A stretch of 64,000 nt of DNA from an uncultured Acidobacteriota bacterium (lineage in GTDB: Bacteria; Acidobacteriota; Blastocatellia; RBC074), in NCBI GenBank assembly GCA_963743045.1, contig CAVUOF010000032.1:69611-133610 (forward strand). Direction: 5' to 3'. Both the position numbers and the translations under genes were made by a program. The notes under the pieces were generated by a model that did no database searches, had not been told where the DNA came from, and was given only the letters and a program-made list of their open reading frames with translations. Shown one piece after another: positions 7,415-60,709 of this stretch (within the stretch, counting starts at the first letter, position 1; each line of letters opens with the position of its first letter).

Positions 7415-8020
7415 ATCGTCTCTCCATCCCGCAGGGATGCAGGAGGGTAGTCAGTGCTGGCTTCGAGGCTGTCTCAAGAATTCGAGTTGTTGTCAGGGAC
7501 TAGGCAGCTTCCATTCCCGCGCACGGGACGTGCGCGAGGATATTAGCCGGTGGTGAAACCACCGGAACGAAATCGCCAAAGGAGCGTTGCGCCCTGGAGG
7601 GCCGCCGGATCAGATTTGCGCAAGCATGTAGTTGAATCCACAATGTTTATGCCTAAATTGCATTATCTGGGCTCAGGTCCTGCGCCCCTGCCGGGGCGCA
7701 ACCGTGAGGGGGGACGCATACCCGGCGGTTTCACCGCCGGCTAATTCCTCGCGCACCTTCGGTGCGCAGGAAGAGCAGGTGCCACCATCCGCGAATTTTA
7801 GACGGCCTCCTTCGCTTGCCCTTGGCTACCGTCTCGCATCCCTGCGGGATGCCCGAAGCTGGCGCCCTGTTTGAGGAGCCTTCATTTCCAACGTCCCTCT
7901 TGTTCCGAAGCGCGACCCGTCGCCGTTCGTAGGGGCGGCTCGTGAGCCGCCCTCACTTCGGCCATCCATCAGTACAGTTCCGAGAGAGGCGTGTGGGGGC
8001 GGTCGCGAGCCGCCCCTACT
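7415..8020. repeat. Mosaic of GC-rich hairpin modules (REP/REPIN-like), including a ~250-bp inverted pair
   Basis: Hairpins CATCCC-gca-GGGATG (7425-7439), GCGCAC..GTGCGC, CCGGTGGTgaaACCACCGG, GCATCCCtgcGGGATGC (7836-7852), and GGGGCGGCtcgtGAGCCGCCC-type (7931-7951, 7995-8015). The arm at 7519-7608 is roughly the reverse complement of the arm at 7681-7770. Confidence 0.7.
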
Positions 8021-9639: not shown

Positions 9640-11544
<1,905 letters not shown>

Positions 11545-13218: not shown

Positions 13219-13398
13219 CCGCGATTCTGCCACTCTTCATCCGCCTGCGCCAGCAAATTTGCACTAACGCCCGCTAAGGATTGAGAAGCTGCGCCAGCAC
13301 AATAGGATACCTCATTGATCAAGGGTCTGATCGAATCTCATAGATCCGTTTTCGTTGCGCCGGAGTATTACTCGTGTGAATAAGCAAAGGAGACGACA

Positions 13399-13676
13399 AT
13401 GAGCACGGACATCACCGGGTATCTGGCTTCCTCGGGAAGAATTGAAACAAGCGATCTCGACTGGGAACTCGCGCGCGAGGCCGGACTGACGGACGACGAA
13501 CACTTCGCTCTTACTATTTGCGGATATTGAAAGCCAGACAATCCGGTACCTGCGCACACTGCTTCAAATGAAGATCCGCGCTCGAACCCGATATTTCCGC
13601 ATTCCTGACTACCTGGAGCTACGAAGAATTCTTTCATGGGCAGGCGGTCGGATCGTGCTCGCCAAGTGAACACTGA
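13399..13676 (+). pseudogene. N-terminal fragment of a ferritin-like diiron (ExxH) protein, frameshifted and truncated
   Basis: RBS AAGGAG, then MSTDITGYLASSGRIETSDLDWELAREAGLTDDEHFALT. Shifting frames gives YFADIESQTIRYLRTLLQMK, then ALEPDISAFLTTWSYEEFFHGQA. The sequence stops at the flanking repeat. Family call is tentative. Confidence 0.35.
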
Positions 13677-13694
13677 AGATTGTCGCGCACGGCG

Positions 13695-14015
13695 TCGCGA
13701 AGCGACAACAGAAGGTAGCCAGGGGCGAGCGAAGCGAAGCCCCTGGATAACAAGTAGACAGGACCCCCGCGTCCTGAAGGGACGCGAGACGTGACGCACC
13801 TTGCCACCCTGAAACCCGCACATTCGGGTATCACATGCCTTCCACACACAGGAGCATTCATGTGCACGTTGTCTTCAGCACCAAGAACCGAACCCCTACC
13901 CTATGGAATTCAGTACCGTTCTGGCGCCCCTCCGGGGCGCGGTCTTATTGTTAAACGATCCAGGGGCTGCGCTTCGCTTGCCCCTGGCTACCTTCTTGCA
14001 TCCCTTCGGGATGCA
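13695..14015. repeat. Inverted pair of REP-like hairpin arms flanking a transposase remnant
   Basis: Left arm ...GAAGGTAGCCAGGGGCGAGCGAAGCGAAGCCCCTGG...CGCGTCCTGAAGGGACGCG. Right arm GCGCCCCTCCGGGGCGC...CCAGGGGCTGCGCTTCGCTTGCCCCTGGCTACC..GCATCCCTTCGGGATGC. The arms are reverse complements in module order. Confidence 0.7.
13835..13900 (+). mobile_element. Remnant (first ~17 codons) of an IS200/RAYT-like Y1 (HUH) transposase
   Basis: The ATG at 13835 reads MPSTHRSIHVHVVFSTKNRTP..., the N-terminus I recall for 'HVHxVFSTKxR' IS200-like/REP-associated transposases. The reading frame then runs into the right repeat arm. Confidence 0.45.
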
Positions 14016-14081
14016 TCGCTCGTTGGAAGGTCAGCCTCGCAATTATGAAAACGACACACAACGAATGGGGCTAATTTCCGC

Positions 14082-14918
14082 TGGTAGCGGAATCTGCAGG
14101 TGACCGTTGCACAAATCTCTCTCGGGCCGGCAAAATGAGTTCCATTGAAGGTCTCACTATGGTCCTTCCTCGAGCGGCTGACCTCAGAATGTGAGTCGCA
14201 TTCCGAACTGAATCTGTCTCGGGTCCGCGGCTCCTGTAGGTGTCCCGAAGGCCCGCAGAGGTATCGCCCCCGTTCCGAAGGTCGCATTCGGAAGCTGCAG
14301 GTTCGAGCGATTGAGCAGATTGCGGTCGTTTCCGGTGACGATATTGAAAAGGCAACGCAGAGCCGTAGCTGAAGATGTAGCTCAACTGAAAGCCTGAGAC
14401 GGCTCGCCGCCAGAACGGCTCGCCCGCAACCGCGGTTGGACTCGAGAGCGAACCGCTGATCACAAGCCGGTGCTGCTGATCATTATCTGCCAACCCGCGG
14501 TCGTCGCGCAGATTGAAGTTATTCTGTGGAGTCGAGAAGAACTCGCTGATGTTGGCGAATCGGGGATCCGGCCGCCCAGGTGGGCGATTCCCTTCTGAGG
14601 AGCCTCTGCCGCTGAACCGTTGTAACATTGACATTGCGTGAGAGGATGACGTGAAGACTCCTGACGTAGACGTAGCCAACGGAGAGCGACGTCGACGAGG
14701 CAATCGCGCTCGAGCTGTAGGCTCGCCCGAATCGCGTAGGAGTTTTCGATATTCGGATCAATCGTCGTAATGCTCGCCAGCAACCCTGACGGAAAGGCCG
14801 ACGCCACACTCGGAAATACGGGTGCCCCCGGCTGTCCGAACGGCATCACCGCAACCCGGTACTTCGTGCCGTCGCGTTGCAGAGCATTTGATGTAGCACG
14901 CAGGGGAATGCGATCGTA
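14082..14918 (-). pseudogene. Decayed remnants of two TonB-dependent receptor genes (paralogs of 31772..33998 and 34029..36816)
   Basis: 14082-14168 aligns to the last ~28 codons of the 31772 gene. 14184-14918 aligns to the C-terminal ~340 codons of the 34029 gene (FGQPGAPVFPSV..., SLSVGYVYVRSLHVILSRNVNV, DNDQQHRLVISGSLSSPTAVAGEPFWRRAVSGFQLSYIFSYGS, ...ADPRQIQFGMRLTF*). The second block carries two internal deletions and several frameshifts. Confidence 0.7.
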
Positions 14919-15178: not shown

Positions 15179-17137
15179 TCAATGTGTTGGCGAATGTGGG
15201 AGTAGCCGGGCCGAATTGAGAATAAAGGCCAGCTCAGAAGTTACATGGATGAAGGCTGCCAGCAAGGGGTTGAGCAGCCCGAAAGCCGCCAGTCCCACCC
15301 CGATGCCATCCACGATCAACGTCCCGGCAAAATTGGTCATGATAATGCGGTGACACCGCCGCGCGATTCTCAGGGTCTCGACGAATTTTAAAAGGTCATT
15401 ACCGAGCAGCATAATGTTCGCGCTCTCACGAGCCACGTCGGTTCCAGAGCCCATCGCCACACCGACGTCGGCCTGCATGAGGGCCGGCGCATCATTGATC
15501 CCGTCACCGATCATTGCAACCTTCCTCCCTGCCTCACTGAGGGCCTGGATTCGCTCGAGCTTCTGCTCCGGAAGGAGATTCGCAGCCACCTCATCGATGC
15601 CAAGCTCCTGACCAACTGCCGCGGCGATTACTTCGACATCACCGGTTAAGAGAATCGTTCGGATTCCTGCCTGGCGAAGCGCAGAGACGGCTTCTTTTGC
15701 TTCAGGCCGAAGCACATCGGCGATCCGGAACCTCCAAGCAGCCGGCCGCCGCGGGCCACGAGAATCTCTGAGGATTGATCAGCCCCTTCAGAGTTCGGGT
15801 CTCGCGGATTCACGATAATCTGTCGCTCGTGGACGAGGCTTCGATTACCAACGACGATCTCCTCTCCCCCGACCGAGCAGATGATGCCTTTGCCTGGCAA
15901 GTAATCGAAGCGCTCCGGCTCCACCACCGGGAGCGCAGCCGCGGCGGCTTTCCTTAAGATCGCAGAGGCGACGGGGTGTTCCGACGGTCTTTCGGCGATT
16001 GCTGCCGCTTCTAATAAGTGCACTCTCGGTGACGCCGTCCACAGGACAGACTGCGATGACCTCAGGCGTTCCCAGTGTCAGCGTGCCGGTCTTGTCAAGC
16101 ACGACCGTATCAATCGTGCCGAGGACCTCGAGGTAGAGCCCTCCCTTGATGATCGCGCCCTCCCGCGCCGCGCGGCCGATAGCACCAAGAATTGCCAGGG
16201 GCGTGCCAGCCGCGATTCCGCAGGCGCCTGCGACAATCACGACCGAAATCGTAGATCGCACGTCGTGAGTGACGAGCAAGGTCAGCGCAGCGCATCCGAT
16301 GGCGAAGTAGACGAGATAGCCCGCGAGCCGGTCTGCGGTCTTCTGAATCGGCGCTCGCGATTTCTCCGCGCGTTCAACTGCCTCGATAATCTTGCCGAAC
16401 GCGGTCTCGCGCCCCAGCCCCTCTGCGCGCACCTCGATGCACGCCGGATTGATTGATGGTGCCGGCGTACACCCGCGCCCCGTCAACTTCTCAACCGGAA
16501 GCGACTCGCCCGTGATCGTCGCCTGGTCAACGAAGGAATGGCCGCGCACGACTTCGCCGTCCACAGGGACGCGTGCGCCGGGCTTGACGATCACTACGTC
16601 ACCCACCTGCATCTCTTCGAGACGCACGGCGTGCGCCTCACCAGCGCGGCGCACGAGCGCCTCTCGTGGCAGCAGATCGAGTAACTCCTTCATCGCGCGC
16701 CTGCCTCGTCCGCCGACCAACCCTTCCAAAACCTCCGCGATGAGGACAAAGAAAATGATGACGAGCGCCGTAAACACTTCGGCGATCGCCAATGCGGCAC
16801 AGATGGCGATGGTCATCGAGAGCTCCATGGTCATCCTGCGCGCGAGGAGTGATGAGAAGGCTTCTTTGAAGATTGGATAGCCGCCAATCAGCGCCGCAAT
16901 GACCCCTATCAGGCTGAGATGCGAGAACGGCTGCAGCCAGAGTGCGATGATTGCGAGACCAACGAACCCGATGCGGACCAGGTCCGATAATTCCACATGA
17001 TGCTCTTCCTGGGCGCCTTCCGCCTCGTCGTGACGCTCAGCCGTGTAGGCAACTTTGGGATTGCCGGTAGAATCCGATGTCGCGTCCACCAGAGTATTCG
17101 TCTTCGTTGCTCGAGCGTGTGCCTGATTCATTAGCAA
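15179..17137 (-). CDS. Heavy-metal (P1B-type) P-type ATPase without an N-terminal HMA domain; two apparent frameshifts (~16020, ~15715)
   Basis: ORFs 15845..17137, 15646..16023 and 15179..15715 join into one ATPase with ITGESLPVEK, DKTGTLT, MIGDGINDAPAL and VAMGSGTDVA. The TM segment has VAGACGIAAGTP where CopA/ZntA have CPC. The N-terminus is His/Glu-rich (ERHDEAEGAQEEHHVE). Confidence 0.8.
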
Positions 17138-30138: not shown

Positions 30139-31426
30139 CTAAGCCTGAAAACCCTTACAGAGACGACAGGATGGAGTAGCACCACGCGCTACTGGAGCGA
30201 GCGCCCGTTGAGCAGGCGTCGGATGAAATGAGCGGCTCAGAAAGACCGAGACCACACCCGGATCATTCGGTCCCGATACCTGTGAAACATTGGTCACGGC
30301 CAGGTCTGGAACGCCATCACGATCGAAGTCCCCCGCACCTATCGTGTAGGCGCCACCCCGCGTCATGAGATTGATCCCATCCTTGAATGTTCCGTCGCCC
30401 TTGCCGAGGAGGACCGTGATTCCCTTTGCCGTGCTCTGACCAATCGAGTCGGTGCTCAGGTTGGCGACTGCGATGTCGAGATTGCCATCAAGATCGAAGT
30501 CCGCCACTGCCAGCCACAAGGGGTCTCTGCCTACGGCAGGTTGTGCGGTACGAGCAAAAGCGCCGGCGCCATTTCCAAGGAATACGCTGACGGTCGCGTT
30601 GACCGAGTCCGCGCTGATCAGATCAAGATTGCCGTCGTGATTGATGTCTACGGAGAGCAGGTAATGGGGCCCGGCACCACTTGTCAGGGTAGTTCCCTCT
30701 CGAAACGTCCCGTCGCCATTTCCTAACTTGATGGCAATTGCACTGTCGTCGAGTACGGCAATCGCGAGGTCTGCTTTGCCGTCGCCATTGAAGTCTCCGA
30801 TTGCCAGCCGCATGGGGACGGTGGCCCGCGTCGAAGCGCGTTCCGTTAGCAGCCGAAGCGTCGAAGAACGTGCCATCGCCGCGGCCGATGAAGATCGAGA
30901 CTAAATTGCGCTCGTCTTCTGCGACCGCCAGGTCCATCTTACCGTCGTTATTCAGATCACCAACGGCGACGTGATGCGGCTGGAGTGAATTGAAATCGTG
31001 TCCGGCGAAGAATGTGCCATCGCCGCGCCCGAGGAGAATGGAGCAGGTTCCAACACCATAGTTGGTGACTACGAGATCGAGGTTTCCGTCACCGTTGAAA
31101 TCGCCTGCAGCAATAGAACTTGGGTAGTCGTCTGCCTGCTGCTTGCCAATGGGGTAAGTGCGGGCCCTCGAGAAGACGCCGTTGCCGCCACCAAGCCGGA
31201 CTACGAGCGAGGGAACGTATGTACTGCCGCTCGGCTGGTAAAAGTTGGTCTGCACGAGATCAGGTATCTTGTCGTGATCGAGATCGACGACAAGCAATCC
31301 GTAGGGCGTATAGACCCGGTCATTGAGCTGAGTACGCAGATAGTCGATGCCTTGTTCTGAATGTATCGCGGGATTCAGCGCGACCGCCAGACCCACGAGG
31401 GTGAGGAGTATGTAAAGCTTTCTCAC
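30139..31426 (-). CDS. FG-GAP/VCBS repeat exported protein, copy B (frameshifts near 30850 and 30215)
   Basis: Nearly identical to copy A (the first 26 residues are identical). Split between ORFs 30623..31426 and 30139..30876. A 1-nt difference near the 3' end extends the reading frame past the stop used in copy A. Confidence 0.7.
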
Positions 31427-31569
31427 GGTTTATCGCTCCAGGCAGTCACTGTTCAAGTCAGCGGACCGGTAGGGAGGTTCCCGCGAGAGGCGACCACCGG
31501 TTGTTGGCCTTGCGCAGACGGTGCCAGAACATGCGGCGGCAAGAGGACCTGTTCGGGACGAAGGCCGCC
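30188..31569. repeat. Segmental duplication, copy B (pairs with 11838-13218)
   Basis: See copy A. Confidence 0.8.
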
Positions 31570-31771
31570 GTCACTATTCTCTTTCCCGCTGAGCATGGGA
31601 CCGCCTCGTGCAGGAAGTCGGCTCAAAGATTGGTTCGCTGCCGGGCCCCGAATGGTATCCGAGTAATGCGCAAGTATTTTGAGAAGGGCAAAAGCCCTTC
31701 GTCTGTGATGCAGGTGGATCGCCGCCTCGATATTCATTCCTGGCCCGGCTGTCGGATCGTGGCCACTTGCG

Positions 31772-33998
31772 CTAGTAGTGGAACCGGTAGGTGACAGCTG
31801 CATAAATCTGTCTCGGGTCGGCATAGTGAGTGCCATTGAAGGTCTCACTGTTGTCCAACAGGAACCGCCGGTTGGCTACATTCAGCATGTGAACGGCAAT
31901 TGAGAGTTTTTCGCCCATAGCCTTTCCCAACGCCAGGTCGAAGGTCGTGTGCCCCGGAAGATGTTGGGGCGCATTGTCTCCATCGACGAAGCCCGACCCA
32001 TAGTAGACGTTGGTAGCTGCAAATGCGCTCCAGGGGAGACGGATATCCCCTCCCACGTTGAGCGTGTTGCGCTGATCATGGTCGAGGAGGAAGTAGTCGC
32101 TCGGCGGAGAGAAGTCGGTCAAGCCACCAGTCACGGCTCCCTGTCCTTCCAGTTTCAACCAGGCATAGGCCGCGTGCACTTGAGCTCGCTGAAACAGCCT
32201 TGGCGAATTGACAGTCACCTCCCACCCTCTGGCCCTGCCTCGCTCAATGGTCACCGGAAAGAAGATGTTCGAGTCGCCGAGCGCATTGTGATCGAAGAGA
32301 TTCTTCGTGCCGGTATGAAAGTAGTCTCCGTCGAGCGTCCAGCCACGAACGGGGAGTGTCAATCCGACCTGATACTCTTCGTTGCGTTCGCCGTGCAGCG
32401 GCAGAAAGGCGAAGCCCTCGTCGAGCGCGAAATCGATCACCGGGCCTTGAACGGTAGACAACGGCGGAGCCTGATAATAACGGCCATAGAATCCTCTCAG
32501 CACCAGACCTGCGCGAGGCAGACGAACCGCGACGCCCGCGCGAGGACTTCCAATGGTCTCGCTCACTCCTCCGTCGAAATGGGTCAATCGCGCGCCCAGA
32601 GTGAGAGTCAGCCAGCCGGTCGGCTTCATCTGATCCTCGAGAAAGAAGGCCTCCAGGTTCCCTGACGGCTTCTCCCTTTGGAGCAGGCTTCCTCCAGTCC
32701 CGTCGTTCGCCTGGAGACCGAAAGAGGCGGTGTCGCTCTGATAGAACGCGTAAACGCCAGCTTTTGCGCTGTGACGATTTGCTCAGCCAGCTGAGCGTCA
32801 CCTGGCCTCCGGCATAGTTCGAAAGGCGTTTCTCCTGCGGGATTATCGGGTTGTCATCGGGACCGCCAAGGAATGACGCATTGTTGAAATGCAGGAATGG
32901 AGAGACAGTCAGCAGCAGGCGCGGTGTGAGAGTTCGGACCCAGGAGAGGTTGATATACCCGTCACTCTCAATCTCGACGTCTCTGATACCGGCCGCTTGT
33001 GTCTCTGGATCGTTGGGCACCTGGTAGAAGTCGCGACGTGCTGAGGCCACCAGACGCAGTTGATCGACGGGAGTCGCGTTGAATGCCAACGAAACGAATG
33101 CCCCGATGCCGTTTCCCAAATCATGGATGACATCCGGTCCCGGGGTCGCCAATCCATAGTCGCTCCGGTTGCCGTTGAGGCTCACAAAATAGGCGAACCG
33201 CTGAGTGTGACTGGCAAAACTGACCTGGTCATTGGTCTGGTTGAAGCTGCCGTAGCTCAGCCTCAGCTCACCTTCCTGATTGCGCTCAAATCCCGACCTC
33301 GGCACGACGTTGAAGACGGCATAAGTGCGGTCGCCGTAGGCTGCCGAATAACTTCCCCGCTGCACTTCGAGGTAATCAATATCTTTCGGATCCACTTGTG
33401 GCGCCACATTGCTGGCGATATTGGTGTTCGGCACCGGAACACCGTCGATCAGCCAGCTGACCTGGTGCCCGCCGCGAACATGCAGGAGATCGTGTGTGAC
33501 ATAGGCTCCCGGAACGTAGTTGGTAATCATCGCCAGGCTGTTGCTGCGATCCGCGCCGGGCGTCCGCGCAATCCTCTCTCGTCCGATAAGAGTCGTAGGC
33601 GTTGGTGAATCCGAACCAATGAGCTCGGGCGCCTCCACGACATCGACTCCTTGCGTAACCGGAGCAATATGCATTGCAAATTCAAGGATTGGGGCATTGT
33701 CCGTGAGAACCGTCACCGGCTGCTCAATCCTGGCGAACCCGCCCGCCTCAACCGTCAGAACATACTCGCCGACGGGAACCGAACGAAAAATGAACTCGCC
33801 GTGATCATCCGTCACAACGGAAAGAACCAGTTGCGAGGTGCGCGATTGGAGGGTCACTTGAGCACCCTTTATTGCCTGCTGCTGAGGATCACGCACCAGA
33901 CCACGCACGTCGCCGAGTACAGCGGCATTCAGGTTTGAAATCATCGCGAGCAGAATGACGGCTGGCAGGATGACAAATAGCAACACCTTTCGACGCAT
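31772..33998 (-). CDS. TonB-dependent receptor (carboxypeptidase-regulatory-like N-domain); at least one frameshift (~32650-32760)
   Basis: Signal MRRKVLLFVILPAVILLAMISNLNA. GLVRDPQQQAIKGAQVTLQS..GEFIFRSVPVGEYVLTVEAGGF, then plug RTPGADRSNSLAMITNYVPG..VRGGHQVSWLIDGVP. The C-terminal ORF 31772..32629 ends YAAVTYRFHY*. Confidence 0.75.
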
Positions 33999-34028
33999 GA
34001 TACCTCCCTTCGTCGAAGCGGCTTGACC

Positions 34029-36816
34029 TCAGAATGTGAGTCGCAATCCGAATTGAATCTGCCTGGGATCTGCCGCCCCTGTGGGCGTCCCGAACGCCGG
34101 CGGCGGAATTGTCCCTGTTCCAAAGGTTGCGTTCGGGAGCTGCAGGTTGGCGCGATTGAGCAGGTTGAAGCCCTCGGCCAGCACATCGAGGCCGAATCTC
34201 TCGGTGAACCTGAAATGGCGGCTGAGTCTCATATCGAAAGAAGCAAAATCAAACCCGACGCCTGTGTTTCGGCCAACTCCGACAGGCCGGTCATTGACCG
34301 CCGTATCATTGTTACGATCGTTGCCAGTTACGATGTTGAAGGGCAAGGACGAGCCATAACTGAAGATGTAGCTCAACTGGAATCCTGACACGGCTCGCCG
34401 CCAGAATGGCTCACCGGCAGCCGCCGTTGGGCTCGACAGCGAACCGCTGATTACAAGTCGATGCCGCTGATCGTTATCCGACAGGCCCCGGTCATCGCGT
34501 AGATTGGAGTTATCCTGCGGGCCGGAAAAGAAGGCGCTTCCCGTATTATCGATCGCCTTCGAGAACGTATAGGAGAGTCTTAAGCCGGCCCAGCTCTTGA
34601 ACCTGCGATTGAGTGAGACAGTCAACCCGTTGTAGTAGGCGTCGCCTGAGCCTTCGTAGCGGCTGATGTTGGCGAAGAGAGGATCGGGACGGCCAAGATT
34701 GGCGATGCCTTTCTGCGTTGCCTCCGCCGCCGAGACGGTTGGAACATTGACGTTGCGCGAAAGAATGACGTGCAGACTCCGCACGTAGACGTACCCGACC
34801 GAGAGCGACGTCGACGAGGCAATCTCGCGCTCCACCTGGAGGCTCGCCCGCAGCGCGTTGGAATTCTCTATGTCAGGATCGATGCGCGTAATGCTGGCCA
34901 GCAACCCGGTCGGAAACGCCGGCAAAACGCTCGGGAAGATGGGTGTACCGGGCTGTCCGAACGGGATCACCGCGACCAGGTATTTCGTGCCGTCACGCTG
35001 CAGAGCATTCGATGTGGCGCGCAGGGGAATGCGATCGTAATAGGTACCATAGCTCGCACGAATGACCGTCTTGTGGTCGCCCGGCGACCAGGCGATGCCG
35101 AGACGGGGAGATATATTGTTGGTGTCTGTTTTGATCGGATCCGGCAGAAACTGCAGGTCGTAACGCAGCCCCAGATTGATCGTGAAATTCTTCAGCCGCC
35201 ATTCGTCCTGAACAAAGAACCCGACGTTTGGATTCGACTGAAACTGGCCTGGTGCTCCGAACGCCTGCTGGAAAGTTACGTACTGGCCGCGAATGAAATT
35301 GGCAAGGTTGGAGAATGTATAGACGCCCTGGAGCGCCCCGGGAAACTCGATGTCGACGCGGTTGAGCAGAAAATCGAGCCCGAATTTCAACGAGTGGGCC
35401 CCTCGACGAAGTGTCATGCTATCGACCGCCTGAATCGAGTCGATATTGCGCTCAGTGGGAGACGACGTCGCTGTGCCCATATTGGCCACACCCGATATCG
35501 AGATGGCCGGGCCGATGAGATCGTTCGGCGGAGCTCCCAGACGGCTGCGCGTGTACTGGAACCGAGCCTCGTTCATCAGTCGCGGAGAGAGAGTGGCGAC
35601 CTCGCTCAGGACTATCGATTGATCGCGACTGTCGAGTGCCGTTCCTCGGCTCACAGCATTGATTCCGCCAACGTTGCGCGCATTGAGGCTCGAAATGTCG
35701 TAGTAGCTGTAACGAGCCGAAAGCAGGTTTGCCGGGTTTATCCGATGGTCCACTCGAACAAAGACGTTGGATGTGTTGTAACCGGCCGGCGCGAGTCCGG
35801 TCTCAACTCTCGATGCGGAGTATTTGACCTGGTTGAGAATGTCATTGATGGCCAGCACGCTGGCCGGCGTTATCGTCAGGACAACTGCGTTATGAAGCCG
35901 CGTCTGCTCGAAGTTGGCAAAGATGAACGTCCGATCCCTGACTATCGGGCCTCCCCCCGTGGCTCCGTATTGCGCTTGCGTCAACGGGTCCTTCGTCCTG
36001 GCCAGAGGATTTCGCGCGTCAAAACGCTGGTTGCGCAGGAAGCCGTACAACCGGCCATGCCAGTCATTGGTTCCTGACTGCGTGACTGACATTGATGATT
36101 CCCGCAGATGCTCGCCCGTACTCGGCGATACCACCGGAAGTGATGACCTGAAACTCACGAATCACGTCCTGGCTGAAGAAGGTCGCCGGAAGATCGGCAG
36201 CATCGTCGTTGGAGGAGAGCCCATCCAGCAGAAATCCGTTGTTGATATTCCTCTGGCCGGTAACCGAGATCGCCGTGCCTGGGACTGCGGAAGTCTCGGC
36301 AAAGCGCTGGTTACTTACAGGATTTGCTCTCGTCACTCCCGGCGTCAGCGCCGCAAGGTCGAGATAATTGCGCCCGTTCAGCGGAAGCGAATCGACCTCC
36401 TTCGGGAGTATGGTCTCGGATACCTGGGTACGCGCGGTCTCTATGATCGGCGCATCCGAATGAACCTCGATTTGTTCACTGACGACGACACCCAGCTTAA
36501 TAGGAACGTCGAGCGTCTGGCCGACAGTGAGAGACAATGCGAGAACAAAGGTGGCAAATCCATCTCGTTCAGCTTTGAGTTGATAGCGTCCGACAGGCAG
36601 ATATGTAAAGCGATATCTGCCCTGGGCATCACTCGTCGTTTGCCATGTTTCGTTCTGATCAACCCTCGTCACGGTGACCGTAGCGCGGGCCACCATGGCG
36701 CCCTGCATGTCTTCGATAGTGCCGCTGAGCGTAGCCGAGGTAACGCTCTGTTGTGCTCTGGCCGTCGCAGCAGTCAAAAGGAGAAGGACTGCGAGCATGG
36801 CCAACCTGCGTCTCAT
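34029..36816 (-). CDS. TonB-dependent receptor (carboxypeptidase-regulatory-like N-domain); one frameshift (~36070-36150)
   Basis: N-terminal ORF 36064..36816 (MRRRLAMLAVLLLLTAATARAQ, GTIEDMQGAMVARATVTVT..GRYRFTYLPVGRYQLKAERDGF, LPLNGRNYLDLAAL). A 709-aa barrel ORF follows, ending ADPRQIQFGLRLTF*. Confidence 0.8.
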
Positions 36817-40065: not shown

Positions 40066-40293
40066 GGCTATCCTCCCAAAAACCTGAGGCTAACTCTGAA
40101 GCCGTCTCCGATTCCAATCGGAGTGGTTACCCAAAGAGGTCATGTCCAGGTTTCATCTATCAATCTTCCACAATGGGTGCCAGATCATAAGCTCAAGTGC
40201 TGCCCAAGGGAGCAATTGGGAGGGCGGCGACTTGTCTCCGCTTTTGCGTTAGTTAGTGGAGCACTTCATTTACAGCCCATTTCTCCTTCATGC

Positions 40294-40476
40294 GCAGCGT
40301 CGATAAGTCGCCGAGACACCTCTGGGCTTATGTTCGAGTGCTCAGATGCACCGGAATCGGTGCCGCAGACTGTCCAGTCTGCGGCGGCCTTCGCTACTGC
40401 ACCATCCAAAGGATATCGGGGCCTAATCTCGAGTGCTGCCGCAGGCTGGACAGCCTGCGGCACGATTGCGGTCTGC
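40294..40476 (+). repeat. ~180-bp two-hairpin REP-like unit (single copy)
   Basis: GCAGCGTCGATAAGTCG...TTATGTTCGAGTGCTCAG...GCCGCAGACTGtccCAGTCTGCGGC...GCCGCAGGCTGgacCAGCCTGCGGCACGATTGCGGTCTGC. Same unit and same orientation as at 41571-41945. Confidence 0.75.
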
Positions 40477-41107
40477 GGCAGCCCCTACAGGCGCCCCTGC
40501 AAAACAGACCCGGTTTTTTTGCCAGCAGTTAGGCTCCATCGCAAGCTCCATTTCAGAAACCGCAGAAATAGGAGTCCCTGACCAACGCCGAAGCACAAGC
40601 TGATCAGGACGTGGGAAACGCCGGTGTGTAAGCCGGACAATCAACCCGGCCAAATAGCCTCGCAACTCCTCAATCGAAACATCGCCCGGCAGATCGACGT
40701 CGTCACCCAGTTCGATCTGGCTGAGTACCCATCCCAATTGCGCAGGCGTCAGCCCCTTGTCCTTGGTCACCGCTGCGCTGAGCGCACTCTCTAACTGGTA
40801 GCCAGCCAACTCCAATGCACGTACGTCTACGAGGTCACGTATTTCCGAGCGCGATAAGAGCGCGCAGAGTTTGTTAGCCATAATCTCCTGCGGCGGGTCG
40901 ACACGAATGCCATTGATTAGCCGCTTGTCCGGCGCCACTTGCATGACGTATTCACGGGCCAGGTCGATGGTCACCGTCATGTGCTCCTCCATGTCCCAGA
41001 TGAAAGCCGACCAGCGCAGCACCACCAGTGAGAAAGAAGCGGTCGTCGCGCCGAAAGAAAGCGCGCAGGAAATCCTGTTGCAAGGCGCTTAGTTGGTGGT
41101 TAGCCAA
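40423..41107 (-). pseudogene. Degraded AbiEii/AbiGii-type nucleotidyltransferase toxin remnant
   Basis: N-terminal frame: LSALQQDFLRAFFRRDDRFFLTGGAALVGFHLGH.... C-terminal frame: MTVTIDLAREYVMQVAPDKRLINGIRVDPPQEIMANKLCALLSRSEIRDLVDVRAL...KDKGLTPAQLGWVL. The central ~50-70 aa expected for the family appear to be missing, and the ORF tail runs into the repeat. Confidence 0.5.
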
Positions 41108-41570: not shown

Positions 41571-41945
41571 GCAGCGTCGATAGGCTCGATGAGACAACCT
41601 CCTGCCTTATGTTCGAATGCTCAGACGCACCGGAATCGTGCCGCAGACTGTCCAGTCTGCGGCGGCCTTCGCTACTGCACCATCAAAGGATATCGGGCGT
41701 GGTCACGAAGTGCTGCCGCAGGCTGGACAGCCTGCGGCGCAGCAGCGTCGATAAGTCGAGAGACAATCTCCCGCCCTATGTTCGAGTGCTCAGTCGCACT
41801 GGAATCGTGCCGCAGACTGTCCAGTCTGCGGCGCCCTTCGCTACTGCACCCTCCAGGATTATCGGGCCTGGTCTCTGAGTGCTGCCGCAGGCTGGACAGC
41901 CTGCGGCACGATTGCGGTCTGCAGTAACCTTCGCTACTGCCCTCA
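41571..41945 (+). repeat. Two tandem copies of the ~170-200-bp two-hairpin REP-like unit
   Basis: Units at 41571-41738 and 41739-41945. Each contains GCCGCAGACTGtccCAGTCTGCGGC and GCCGCAGGCTGgacCAGCCTGCGGC. Confidence 0.75.
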
Positions 41946-47299: not shown

Positions 47300-47353
47300 G
47301 AGCCCATGATACACGCCCAACCGAGCTAAGGGTAAAGACTCTCCAAGGCAATT

Positions 47354-47470
47354 GTAGGGGCAGGGCTTGTCCCTGCCCGCCCGGCGCCGTCTGGCGCCGG
47401 TAATCAGGCGCAGACGCGGAACTTACCCGCGCCGGACGGCGCGGGACGGGCAGGGACAAGCCGCTGCCCC
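47354..47470. repeat. REPIN-like inverted doublet (GGGCAGGG family)
   Basis: GGGGCAGGGcttgTCCCTGCCC + CCGGCGCCgtctGGCGCCGG, a 26-nt centre, then CCGCGCCggacGGCGCGG + GGGCAGGGACAAGCCGCTGCCCC. Confidence 0.75.
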
Positions 47471-47507
47471 CAATTTGCTCCTTAGCTGATAAGCAGGTTG
47501 CAGAGGA

Positions 47508-51651: not shown

Positions 51652-51782
51652 TACCCGCGCCCTTCGGCACGGGCGGGCAGGGACAAGCCCTGCCCCTACA
51701 TATGTCTCGACAATGTGGCACTTCGCGATGACCTTGTAGGGGCAGGGCTTGTCCCTGCCCGCCCGCGCCGTCCGGCGACGGT
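51652..51782. repeat. REPIN-like inverted doublet (GGGCAGGG family)
   Basis: GGGCAGGGACAAGCCCTGCCCCTACA, a 38-nt centre, then TGTAGGGGCAGGGCTTGTCCCTGCCC. Flanked by CCCGCGCC../..GCGCCGTCCGGCG hairpin halves. Confidence 0.75.
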
Positions 51783-56016: not shown

Positions 56017-56222
56017 TCGCATCCAGAAGGGATGCAGGAAGGTGGCCAGAGGCAGCGCATCGCTGTCTCAAGGGAGGGCGGCGAACGGCTCGGTATGGAG
56101 TGCGGCGACCTGTCGCCGCTTTGCGTTACCTAGTACAGCGCTGAGATTCACAGGCGCATTTTTTTCATCACTGCACTACGTAAATCAAAAGCGGCGACAA
56201 GTCGCCGCACTCCATACTGAGC
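56017..56222. repeat. REP/REPIN-like element (GCGGCGAC hairpin family plus GCATCC..GGATGC hairpin)
   Basis: GCATCCagaaGGGATGC. GGTATGGAGTGCGGCGACctGTCGCCGC is inverted against GCGGCGACaaGTCGCCGCACTCCATAC around a ~70-nt centre. A related half-site lies at 40214-40250. Confidence 0.7.
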
Positions 56223-59702: not shown

Positions 59703-60446
59703 ATGTACATAAGAAGAGTTCTGAGTCTCTTGTTCTTGACTGTTGTGGTCATGGCCCAGTCACCAGATCCACCGCTGGGTGAAGCTCGGCTCAGTATTCA
59801 CACGCTCCTTCGCGAAGACATCTTTGCCGGACTTCTATCAAATGACATGACGCGATTTGAAAGGGGCGAAAGGAATATCCAGCTGTTGCTGCAGCAGCGG
59901 CCTGCGGCGCGGTCCAACGTGCTCGCCTGGCAAGCTCTGTCAAACCTTTACCGGGCTGTGCTCGCCTATGAAAATAATCGCTCAAGCGAGTTTCAGGAAA
60001 AGTACCAGGCGGCAGTCAATCTCTTTGCTCAGGCTCAGAAGCTCGGGCCTGAGGACGGAGGCGTCGCTGCGCTTGTGGGCGGAAGCTACGTAACTTTAAC
60101 TGATCGACTGCCAAAGGAGAATCGTGCGGCGGGCTGGTCGCAGGCATACGACGCCTACCACGTGCTTTGGAAGCAACAGGAAGCAATGCTCGACAAACTG
60201 CCTGTGCACATACGAGGGGAGCTGCTCGCCGGTCTGGCTCAGTCTGCGCAACGGACTGGTCGAGCTGAAGAAGCAGCGAAGCATGTTGATCGAATTCTTG
60301 AAGTGATGCGTGATACGCCTTATGAAGGTGTCGCCAGGCAATGGAAGAAGAACCCGAACGCCGCCGGGAGCAGCAGTATTGCATGTATGACATGCCATGA
60401 GCCTGGCCGGCTCGCCGCGAGACTGGTTGTTCTCAACGCGAAATAG
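59703..60446 (+). CDS. Exported helical-repeat protein with a C-terminal CxxCH motif
   Basis: Signal MYIRRVLSLLFLTVVVMAQS. Helical, TPR-like composition. C-terminal ...SSSIACMTCHEPGRL. Confidence 0.45.
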   Translation: MYIRRVLSLLFLTVVVMAQSPDPPLGEARLSIHTLLREDIFAGLLSNDMTRFERGERNIQLLLQQRPAARSNVLAWQALSNLYRAVLAYENNRSSEFQEKYQAAVNLFAQAQKLGPEDGGVAALVGGSYVTLTDRLPKENRAAGWSQAYDAYHVLWKQQEAMLDKLPVHIRGELLAGLAQSAQRTGRAEEAAKHVDRILEVMRDTPYEGVARQWKKNPNAAGSSSIACMTCHEPGRLAARLVVLNAK

Positions 60447-60473
60447 CGGGCGGGCAAGAACCGGCTGTCTCCG

Positions 60474-60697
60474 CGCATCCCGCAGGGATGCGAAGGTAGC
60501 CAGGGGCAAGCGAAGCGCAGCCCCTGGAAAGCTCGACGAAAAGAGGCGACGCGCCCTGAAGGGGCGCGAGACCGCAGTCTATCAAGTTGCTAGGTCTCGC
60601 GTCCCTCCAGGACGAGTCTCTCTTTGGCGGCTGATTCCAGGGGCTGCGCTTCGGCTTTGCTTGCCCCTGGCTACCATCTCGCATCCCTCACGGGATG
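60474..60697. repeat. Complete REPIN-like inverted doublet with short palindromic centre
   Basis: GCATCCCgcaGGGATGC + CCAGGGGCAAGCGAAGCGCAGCCCCTGG + GCGCCCTgaaGGGGCGC, centre GAGACC..GGTCTC, then the same modules in reverse-complement order, ending GCATCCCtcacGGGATG. Confidence 0.8.
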
Positions 60698-60709
60698 TTG
60701 AGGGTACAA

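Follow-up and report, generated by a model that had tools for sequence, protein, structure and literature searches.

A decayed REPtron-like unit, probably the remains of an IS200-like Y1 transposase gene between inverted three-hairpin arms, in an Acidobacteriota contig

We analysed a stretch of 64,000 nucleotides (nt) from an uncultured Acidobacteriota bacterium (contig CAVUOF010000032.1; hereafter the window, in whose coordinates all unprefixed positions are given) and focused on a short inverted repeat at positions 13692-14014. We regard this locus as a decayed unit resembling a REPtron, i.e. a small transposase gene together with its repetitive extragenic palindromes (REPs). With a probability of about 0.85, it is a dead, internally deleted unit in which a 148-amino-acid (aa) IS200-like Y1 (HUH) transposase gene of subclass 1.2 was framed by inverted arms of about 100 nt, each made of three hairpins. 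Both arms, a 44-nt leader and codons 1-21 of the gene survive, while about 125 codons are lost, including those for the HUH motif and the catalytic tyrosine, so that the locus encodes no enzyme.

The core arms of the inverted repeat (13692-13748 and 13958-14014) are 57 nt each, 84% complementary and separated by 209 nt. Alignment with four other arms of the window extends the full arm to about 100 nt (13692-13790 and 13924-14014). A first-pass annotation, made from the sequence without database searches, had described two arms of about 95 bp in opposite orientation and built from the same hairpin modules; their inversion and modularity stand, and the length is corrected here. From outside to inside, each arm is ordered as hairpin H1, a linker, a GTAG foot, hairpin H2, a spacer of about 20 nt and hairpin H3 followed by AGAC. 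In the arms of the window, H1 has a 5-7 bp stem and a GAA-type loop; H2 has the stem CCAGGGGC/GCCCCTGG, directly abutted by GTAG, and a 12-nt loop with GCGAAGC; and H3 reads CGCGyCC-TGAA-GGrCGCG. The parts of the locus are as follows (primes mark the inverted copies).

13692-13790, plus strand: left arm (from alignment, inverted-repeat and module patterns)
13692-13706, plus strand: left H1, stem GTCGC/GCGAC, loop GAA
13715-13718, plus strand: left foot, GTAG
13719-13746, plus strand: left H2, stem CCAGGGGC/GCCCCTGG, 12-nt loop including GCGAAGC
13768-13786, plus strand: left H3, after a 21-nt spacer from H2 and followed by AGAC
13791-13834, plus strand: leader of 44 nt from H3 to the ATG; includes the short hairpin ACCCG-cacatt-CGGGT (13814-13829)
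13835-13897, plus strand: stub of a Y1 (HUH) transposase gene, codons 1-21, MPSTHRSIHVHVVFSTKNRTP, strand beta-1 region (from profile and BLASTP)
13898-13923, plus strand: deletion junction of 26 nt without clear homology (from comparison with the 3' ends of intact genes)
13924-14014, minus strand: right arm, an inverted copy of the left (from inverted-repeat, alignment and module patterns)
13924-13940, minus strand: H3' of the right arm
13960-13987, minus strand: H2' of the right arm, separated from H3' by a spacer
13988-13991: CTAC, the complement of the foot in the right arm, followed by a linker
13998-14014, minus strand: H1' of the right arm, GCATCCC-ttc-GGGATGC

The gene remnant is identified by its beginning. 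The ATG at 13835 opens an open reading frame (ORF; 13835-13954, MPSTHRSIHVHVVFSTKNRTPTLWNSVPFWRPSGARSYC) that enters H3' of the right arm and stops at 13952-13954. Its first 21 residues share 18 identities (86%) with an intact relative (P0123), starting from the family's initiator methionine (BLASTP E = 3e-11). When a profile of 120 relatives was run against the 2336 six-frame segments of the window with all filters off, the stub was the sole match (E = 7.9e-8, profile positions 1-25; the runner-up has E = 6), and no second fragment of the transposase gene was found in the window in any of the six frames. At the DNA level, 38-49 of the first 63 nt are identical to those of intact genes, and the identity ends there. 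The first-pass annotation had proposed a transposase-like N-terminus at this ATG, a frame dissolving into the right arm and an almost completely deleted gene; all three proposals agree with these results. By contrast, its H-V-H triad is not the catalytic motif. When aligned with the ISDra2-type transposase 2FYX, the HVH of the stub lies in strand beta-1; the HUH motif of 2FYX, DYVHLL, corresponds in position to DHVHLL in the relatives (residues ~54-59), and this region is deleted here. The catalytic tyrosine motif (YIaxQeEHH, residues ~114-122 in the relatives) is likewise absent from the window in all six frames. Judged by its sequence, the stub is a homologous fragment of PF01797 and not a domain-length member. 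As a conjecture, 'cta tgg aat tca' in the junction could represent the last codons of the gene (LW[D] and the stop) with the stop mutated; the intact 3' ends used for comparison read ...ctg tgg gac tga (L018) and ...ttg tgg tga/tag (L013/L015), where L numbers denote loci fetched from other sequences.

The intact family was reached by two routes: (i) a tblastn search of plasmids with the peptide gave a weak match in Persicobacter (E = 0.9), a 150-aa ORF with PF01797 over its whole length (4.9e-26) that also matches NCBIfam transpos_IS200; and (ii) a degenerate DNA pattern for HVHVVFSTKNR, run on metagenome contigs, gave seven loci with intact genes of 139-150 aa, those in L013 and L015 starting with MPSTHLSLHVHVVFSTKNR. 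A search from one intact gene returned 1577 relatives, the best 120 of which are 146-202 aa long (mostly 148) and all carry PF01797. The existence of PF01797 genes with this N-terminus, on which the first-pass annotation had made its proposal depend, is thus borne out. The relatives score above the cut-off of NCBIfam NF033573 (transpos_IS200), are homologous to 2FYX (E = 4.8e-5) and have the consensus motifs DHVHLL, WQDGYG and YIaxQeEHH. These intact relatives, as distinct from the 21-aa stub, show all the marks of TnpAY1 subclass 1.2 (DH[IV]H, WQ, YIxNQxEHH, ~148 aa and a C-terminal tail). They carry YIaxQeEHH, a class 1 signature, and not the tyrosine motif Y---NP of class 2 REP-associated tyrosine transposases (RAYTs). 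Their motifs and length therefore place the intact proteins, as far as sequence can tell, in subclass 1.2 and not among class 2 RAYTs.

Subclass 1.2 was described by Quentin et al. (2018; PMC6006769) as IS200-related, without insertion sequence (IS) properties, found mainly in Cyanobacteria and Bacteroidetes, with the motifs DH[IV]H, WQ and YIKNQKEHH, a median length of 148 aa and a low copy number (mean 1.7, with 36% identity between copies). By their source names, the relatives found here also come from Acidobacteriota, Verrucomicrobiota and Planctomycetota. One of them (P0164) is a 148-aa protein found in identical form in four separate samples (L020-L023), each time encoded between the same two genes, for an aminotransferase and an aldehyde dehydrogenase; it looks like a stably inherited single-copy gene and not a jumping IS. 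The type I restriction-modification gene hsdM lies directly downstream of the intact Y1 unit in L013, L015 and L025, and in L025 hsdR also lies directly upstream.

We inspected 12 intact loci (L001, L013-L020 and L024-L026; Acidobacteriota-type metagenome contigs and one Bacteroidota plasmid), and all 12 have the layout H1-GGA[A/T]A[T/G]TAG-H2-spacer-H3-9-65 nt-ATG...stop-H3'-spacer-H2'-CTA[A/C]-H1'. A gene bracketed by inverted palindromes, as in class 2 RAYTs, is therefore found in every intact locus inspected as well as at the stub locus. Stem sequences vary from element to element, and a single element may even have different stems at its two ends, yet pairing is kept. Across 36 aligned arms, 96.7% of the cells of H1 are paired, each of its five pairs has changed on both sides, and its covariation score of 0.73 compares with 0.25 in shuffles and 0.10 or less with a slid partner. 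In H2, perfect 7-8-bp stems occur in at least eight different sequences, and TAGC is invariant in the alignment. That intact copies should be flanked by the same modules, as the first-pass annotation anticipated, is confirmed for the inverted architecture (12/12), with stems and foot mostly different from those of the window. At some element ends, H1 or H1+H2 modules stand in tandem (3-4 copies; L004:6805-6900, L012:3110-3290 and upstream of the gene in L013), and so the arms can expand locally.

In the window, three module patterns have 8, 5 and 2 matches against 0.34, 0.00 and 0.00 expected from shuffles, and H2 is present in five copies at three mismatches or fewer. Loci with these modules number only three (7424-7852, 13692-14014 and 60469-60697). 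Folded as single-stranded DNA, the 336-nt region of the stub locus reaches -98.7 kcal/mol, compared with -54.4 +/- 4.1 in shuffles (z = -10.9). The GT[AG]G foot of class 2 RAYT REPs is present as well: in L017, L019 and the arms of the window, GTAG directly abuts the CCAGGGGC stem. The sequence GCGAAGC forms an unusually stable DNA mini-hairpin; together with the GAA-type loops (on the inward-reading strand), it is compatible with a DNA-level role of the arms and no proof of it.

Arms of the same kind also occur without a gene. The two other module loci of the window are:

60469-60697, unstranded: gene-less doublet with arms back to back (REPIN-like) around a ~21-nt centre, folding as one long hairpin
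7424-7852, unstranded: third module locus with outer H1-GTAG...CTAC-H1', which looks like a collapsed 'double-foot' element
about 7458-7808: insert of ~350 nt in the H2 loop of the preceding locus, at CTTCG, with a TTAG-type doublet (feet at 7543, plus strand, and 7744, minus strand)

The doublet at 60469-60697 folds at -97.3 kcal/mol (z = -13.9). The form that defines a REPIN (an inverted REP doublet with a short spacer, folding as one hairpin and holding no gene) is seen there and in L002, L004, L006, L007 and L010-L012. The stub locus, with an interior of 133 nt that contains gene remains, is an intermediate form between the gene-bearing unit and the REPIN doublet, and, among the copies seen, it alone retains a piece of the gene. 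When one genome per species was searched with the H2 pattern, 11 exact loci were found, six of them in one metagenome-assembled genome (MAG). They lie in MAGs of Pyrinomonadaceae and other Acidobacteriota and in two bins labelled otherwise; most are doublets, and they share the repeat alone with the window, their flanking genes being different. Viral contigs gave no match to the H2 pattern or to the N-terminal coding pattern. A contig ~95% identical and syntenic to the window at 49.9-63.9 kb (L027; JGI Ga0418691_40986) has ~320 extra bases at 10767-11340 relative to 60446-60700 of the window, which form a second doublet, and the repeat locus therefore differs between close relatives.

The history of the site can be read in part from a diverged segmental duplicate. 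Segment 11831-14919 corresponds to 30182-35040 with 81-96% identity, and both contain genes for an FG-GAP repeat protein and a TonB-dependent receptor. The receptor gene of the first copy is a pseudogene that has lost ~2.1 kb (31856-34024 have no counterpart) and whose stop has changed from TAG to CAG. On either side of the element, 13628-13657 is matched by 31732-31761 and 14076-14165 by 31767-31856, while 13658-14075 (418 nt, including the 323-nt element) has no counterpart in the paralogous segment. By this comparison, the duplication probably came first, and the element then reached its site immediately 3' of the stop codon of the receptor gene. Two candidate features of the insertion were rejected: (i) a 15-nt target duplication, which is identical at only 8 of 15 positions and is not claimed; and (ii) a second element end at 14069-14084 (ggctaatttccgctgg), which has a 16-nt identity to the right end of L013, since 14076 onward is homologous to the receptor 3' end and only ~8 nt are left. 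The sequence collection holds no close relative covering the 8-23 kb region, and exact look-ups of proteins from the window gave no recorded location. In both duplicates the FG-GAP gene reads as two overlapping ORFs. Beside the decayed receptor, a P-type ATPase gene (15179-17137, minus strand) is split into three overlapping ORFs that differ in frame (15179-15715, 15646-16023 and 15845-17137) and may be another pseudogene.

Several observations weigh against a decayed transposase unit with these arms. Only 21 codons are left, and the 3' breakpoint of the deletion is placed only approximately. Searches with the 39-aa peptide alone gave no Pfam or NCBIfam match, one unrelated match in the PDB (7JTZ_B, GLO3; E = 0.24), one candidate and no match in a word-index protein search, and two multi-stretch matches that look spurious in a phmmer search of 1.84 billion representatives; with homology limited to ~21 residues, they are uninformative. 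The foot of the relatives is mostly TTAG and their stems are unlike the GTAG-CCAGGGGC type of the window, and among the loci inspected no intact gene has exactly the window's arms. Within 8 kb of the 11 H2 loci of other genomes, no Y1 gene or fragment was found. Copy number is modest, with three loci in 64 kb and six exact H2 matches in the best MAG. At the site itself, the surroundings are scrambled relative to the paralogue (13222-13627 also lacks a counterpart), so that an insertion is likely but not a clean one, and no target duplication was recognised at 13692-14014. Binding and cleavage of these hairpins by subclass 1.2 proteins is a predicted function, by analogy with better known enzymes. 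Finally, the published entry for subclass 1.2 reads 'REP: no' (PMC6006769). The automatic REP search of that study looked for a GT[AG]G foot (PMC6006769), which a TTAG foot does not fit, and we infer this misfit as a possible cause of the record.

The alternative that survives best concerns the order of events. The stub may already have lain within a non-autonomous doublet when it was inserted, as a deletion derivative mobilised in trans in the manner of miniature inverted-repeat transposable elements (MITEs), instead of decaying on the spot. We rate this course as less likely than not. It fits the intact and symmetric arms around a gene that is almost wholly gone, the gene-less doublets that the same arms form in other genomes at sites without homology, and the locus that differs between contigs ~95% identical. 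It would gain from a second copy of the interior (leader, stub and junction), and none was found in the window or in the 26 fetched loci, a small sample of sequence. As in MITEs formed by internal deletion, the locus has retained its two ends and lost its coding region, and its transposase would presumably have to come in trans. The ends of MITEs, however, are plain terminal inverted repeats recognised by a DDE enzyme, whereas those of the locus are arrays of structured hairpins read in single-stranded form, and no target-site duplication was identified here.

We think it unlikely that the locus is a decayed copy of a classical autonomous IS200-type insertion sequence. Such an origin would agree with proteins that exceed the NCBIfam transpos_IS200 cut-off and belong to class 1 (PMC6006769), and with the fact that the paralogue has no counterpart of the locus or its stub, from which it follows that a unit with at least part of the gene arrived. 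Elements of the IS200/IS605 group (e.g. IS608 and ISDra2) also share a homologous Y1 HUH enzyme, hairpin ends and, by analogy, presumably a single-strand DNA mechanism. However, their subterminal hairpins lie on one strand (both ends on the top strand) and their ends are not inverted, whereas the ends here are inverted in 12/12 intact loci and at the stub. They are multi-copy and often carry tnpB, and no tnpB was seen here. Moreover, subclass 1.2 has a low copy number (mean 1.7, 36% identity) and no IS properties (PMC6006769), P0164 occupies the same place between two metabolic genes in four samples, and gene-less doublets outnumber gene copies among the loci seen.

The arms have a counterpart in Rfam. 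Read outward, the outer H2/H1 module matches Acido-Lenti-1 (RF01687), whose model (a hairpin, GGCUAA, a linker and a hairpin with a UUC loop) corresponds to H2'-CTAA-H1'; the Koribacter seed sequence also has an H3-like hairpin upstream. With a gathering cut-off of 37 bits, all matches in the window fall short (13693-13746, minus strand, 36.4 bits; 7722-7766, plus strand, 34.7 bits; 13983-14013, plus strand, 23.2 bits), and matches beside intact genes exceed it in L019 (42.4 bits), L018 (39.7), L017 (39.1) and L015 (38.3). Divergent pairs of matches surround the genes in L013, L015, L017, L018 and L026, and the stub. Acido-Lenti-1 was introduced as a candidate trans-acting small RNA (sRNA) of unknown function, 'sometimes near group II introns' and rated 'probably RNA' on covariation (Weinberg et al. 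2010; PMC2864571). Its function was still given as unknown in a 2026 preprint, and genome papers still annotate it as a non-coding RNA. In the literature searched, of which coverage was incomplete, we found no paper that ties it to a transposase or to repeats.

It could therefore be asked whether the arms are structured RNA genes or regulatory elements (Acido-Lenti-1 sRNAs) or terminators, close to a transposase by coincidence. The covariance model matches, the rating of Weinberg et al. (2010; PMC2864571) and the position just 3' of the receptor gene all speak for this explanation, which we nevertheless consider improbable. The matches form divergent pairs that bracket a Y1 gene or the stub, and 13 of 14 in 59 kb of loci stand at one end of a Y1 gene; DNA hairpins that HUH enzymes read would be expected to covary just as much; and the doublets disperse to unrelated sites and genomes. 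An RNA role of the arms could coexist with a DNA role. A chance ORF in GC-rich palindromic DNA with an accidental likeness to a transposase, as the peptide-alone searches without a relevant match might suggest, is effectively refuted by the 18/21 identity beginning exactly at the family's initiator methionine, by the profile value of 7.9e-8 in the six-frame window (next, E = 6) and by the correct position and orientation between arms like those of intact genes.

How a decayed transposase unit with such arms would have worked can be outlined by analogy with REP/RAYT and IS200/IS605 biochemistry. The protein would recognise the H2 hairpin with its 5' [G/T]TAG foot in single-stranded DNA, with H1 and H3 as putative accessory hairpins. 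It would cut and rejoin DNA at the footed hairpin, by analogy with E. coli TnpA-REP and IS608 (PMC3333891, PMC3479197). Because the arms are inverted, the recognised strand would differ at the two ends, which is the arrangement of REPtrons and bacterial interspersed mosaic elements and not that of IS200. Arms without a gene (e.g. 60469-60697) would be non-autonomous and depend on an intact copy elsewhere in trans. The stubbed locus may represent one route from a gene-bearing unit to a doublet, via internal deletion. Such an origin, from an IS200-like ancestor, has been proposed for REPINs.

Among known systems, the REPtrons of E. coli and Pseudomonas (PMC2817692, PMC3116915, PMC3333891) are similar in several respects, i.e. 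a small Y1 HUH gene between inverted palindromes, a main hairpin with G/T-TAG at its 5' foot, inverted doublets without a gene that fold into one long hairpin and a gene kept at the same site, here in four samples (L020-L023). They differ in that the protein here is of class 1 (IS200-like, YIxxQxEHH) and that of REPtrons of class 2 (Y---NP), and in that the arm here is an array of three hairpins and ~100 nt compared with a single REP of 20-40 nt. In addition, the foot is TTAG in most relatives, and copy number is known here from 64 kb (three loci). The suggestion of a Y1-driven REP/REPIN system thus stands as regards the inverted-arm layout and the gene-less doublets, and needs revision as regards the enzyme, which is of the IS200-like subclass 1.2 and not a canonical RAYT. 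The likeness to published subclass 1.2 (PMC6006769) lies in the motifs, the 148-aa length and the extra C-terminal tail, and Persicobacter belongs to the Bacteroidota, a phylum on that paper's list; the difference is that every member inspected here has conserved inverted three-hairpin arms.

A broader proposal has, in our judgement, about even odds: subclass 1.2 may provide the enzyme of a conserved repeat system whose arms have three hairpins and which extends across Acidobacteriota, Bacteroidota and the other phyla named in the sources; Acido-Lenti-1 may be the terminal DNA module of this system and not an sRNA gene; and the present locus may have been caught turning REPIN-like by internal deletion. 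The stub itself is ordinary, being one more decayed gene of a mobile element. What deserves attention is that an IS200-like subclass described without repeats carries conserved, covarying inverted arms, and that gene-less copies of these are dispersed in other genomes. If the proposal is true, a REP/RAYT-style arrangement would exist within the IS200 branch itself and bridge insertion sequences and domesticated REP systems. It would also offer a testable account of Acido-Lenti-1, whose function has been unknown since 2010, and the [G/T]TAG-footed H2 hairpin with H1 and H3 would provide a defined substrate for the 148-aa protein.

The insert at 7424-7852 has parallels elsewhere. Inserts of ~320-350 nt occur there, at L027:10975-11294 and at L006:7389-7715, bounded by AGGCTGTCTCAA(A/G)AATT...AATTTT(G/T)AGAC(A/G)G(T/C)CT and with a complete doublet within. 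In L027, as in the window, the insert interrupts a GTAG element at CTTCG within the H2 loop, and in L006 a copy 89% identical to that of the window lies in the loop of a different REP (GGGCAGGGACAAG...). The insert looks like a small mobile element targeting REP hairpin loops. The doublet centre at 7640-7680 can be read as MFMPKLHYL, which is faintly like the N-terminus of the transposase family; the profile gives no support, and it was set aside.

The first-pass annotation had linked the transposase to the abundant hairpin repeats of the window in general. The link is retained for the three loci with these modules; further hairpin families (GCCGCAGGCTGGACAGCCTGCGGC; GTAGGGGCAGGGCTTGTCCCTGCCC; GGCGACnTGTCGCCGC) differ in sequence, and no connection to the transposase gene was seen. 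The GCCGCAGGCTGGACAGCCTGCGGC family (seven copies) and the GGCGAC(n)TGTCGCCGC family occur at 1715-1767, 40355-40483 and 41633-41929, and at 40219-40261 and 56088-56222; some of them form inverted doublets, and they lack a GTAG/TTAG foot and are unrelated in sequence to the arms described here. A GTAG-footed REP, GTAGGGGCAGGGCTTGTCCCTGCCC, forms doublets at 47343-47481 and 51653-51782 and is distinct from these arms. Its doublet at 47.3 kb matches the Rfam mraW RNA (RF01746) on both strands with 38-40 bits, below the cut-off of 50. An identical 25-mer of GTAGGGGCAGGGCTTGTCCCTGCCC occurs at L024:3668-3761, on a 5-Mb metagenome contig with its own Y1 gene.

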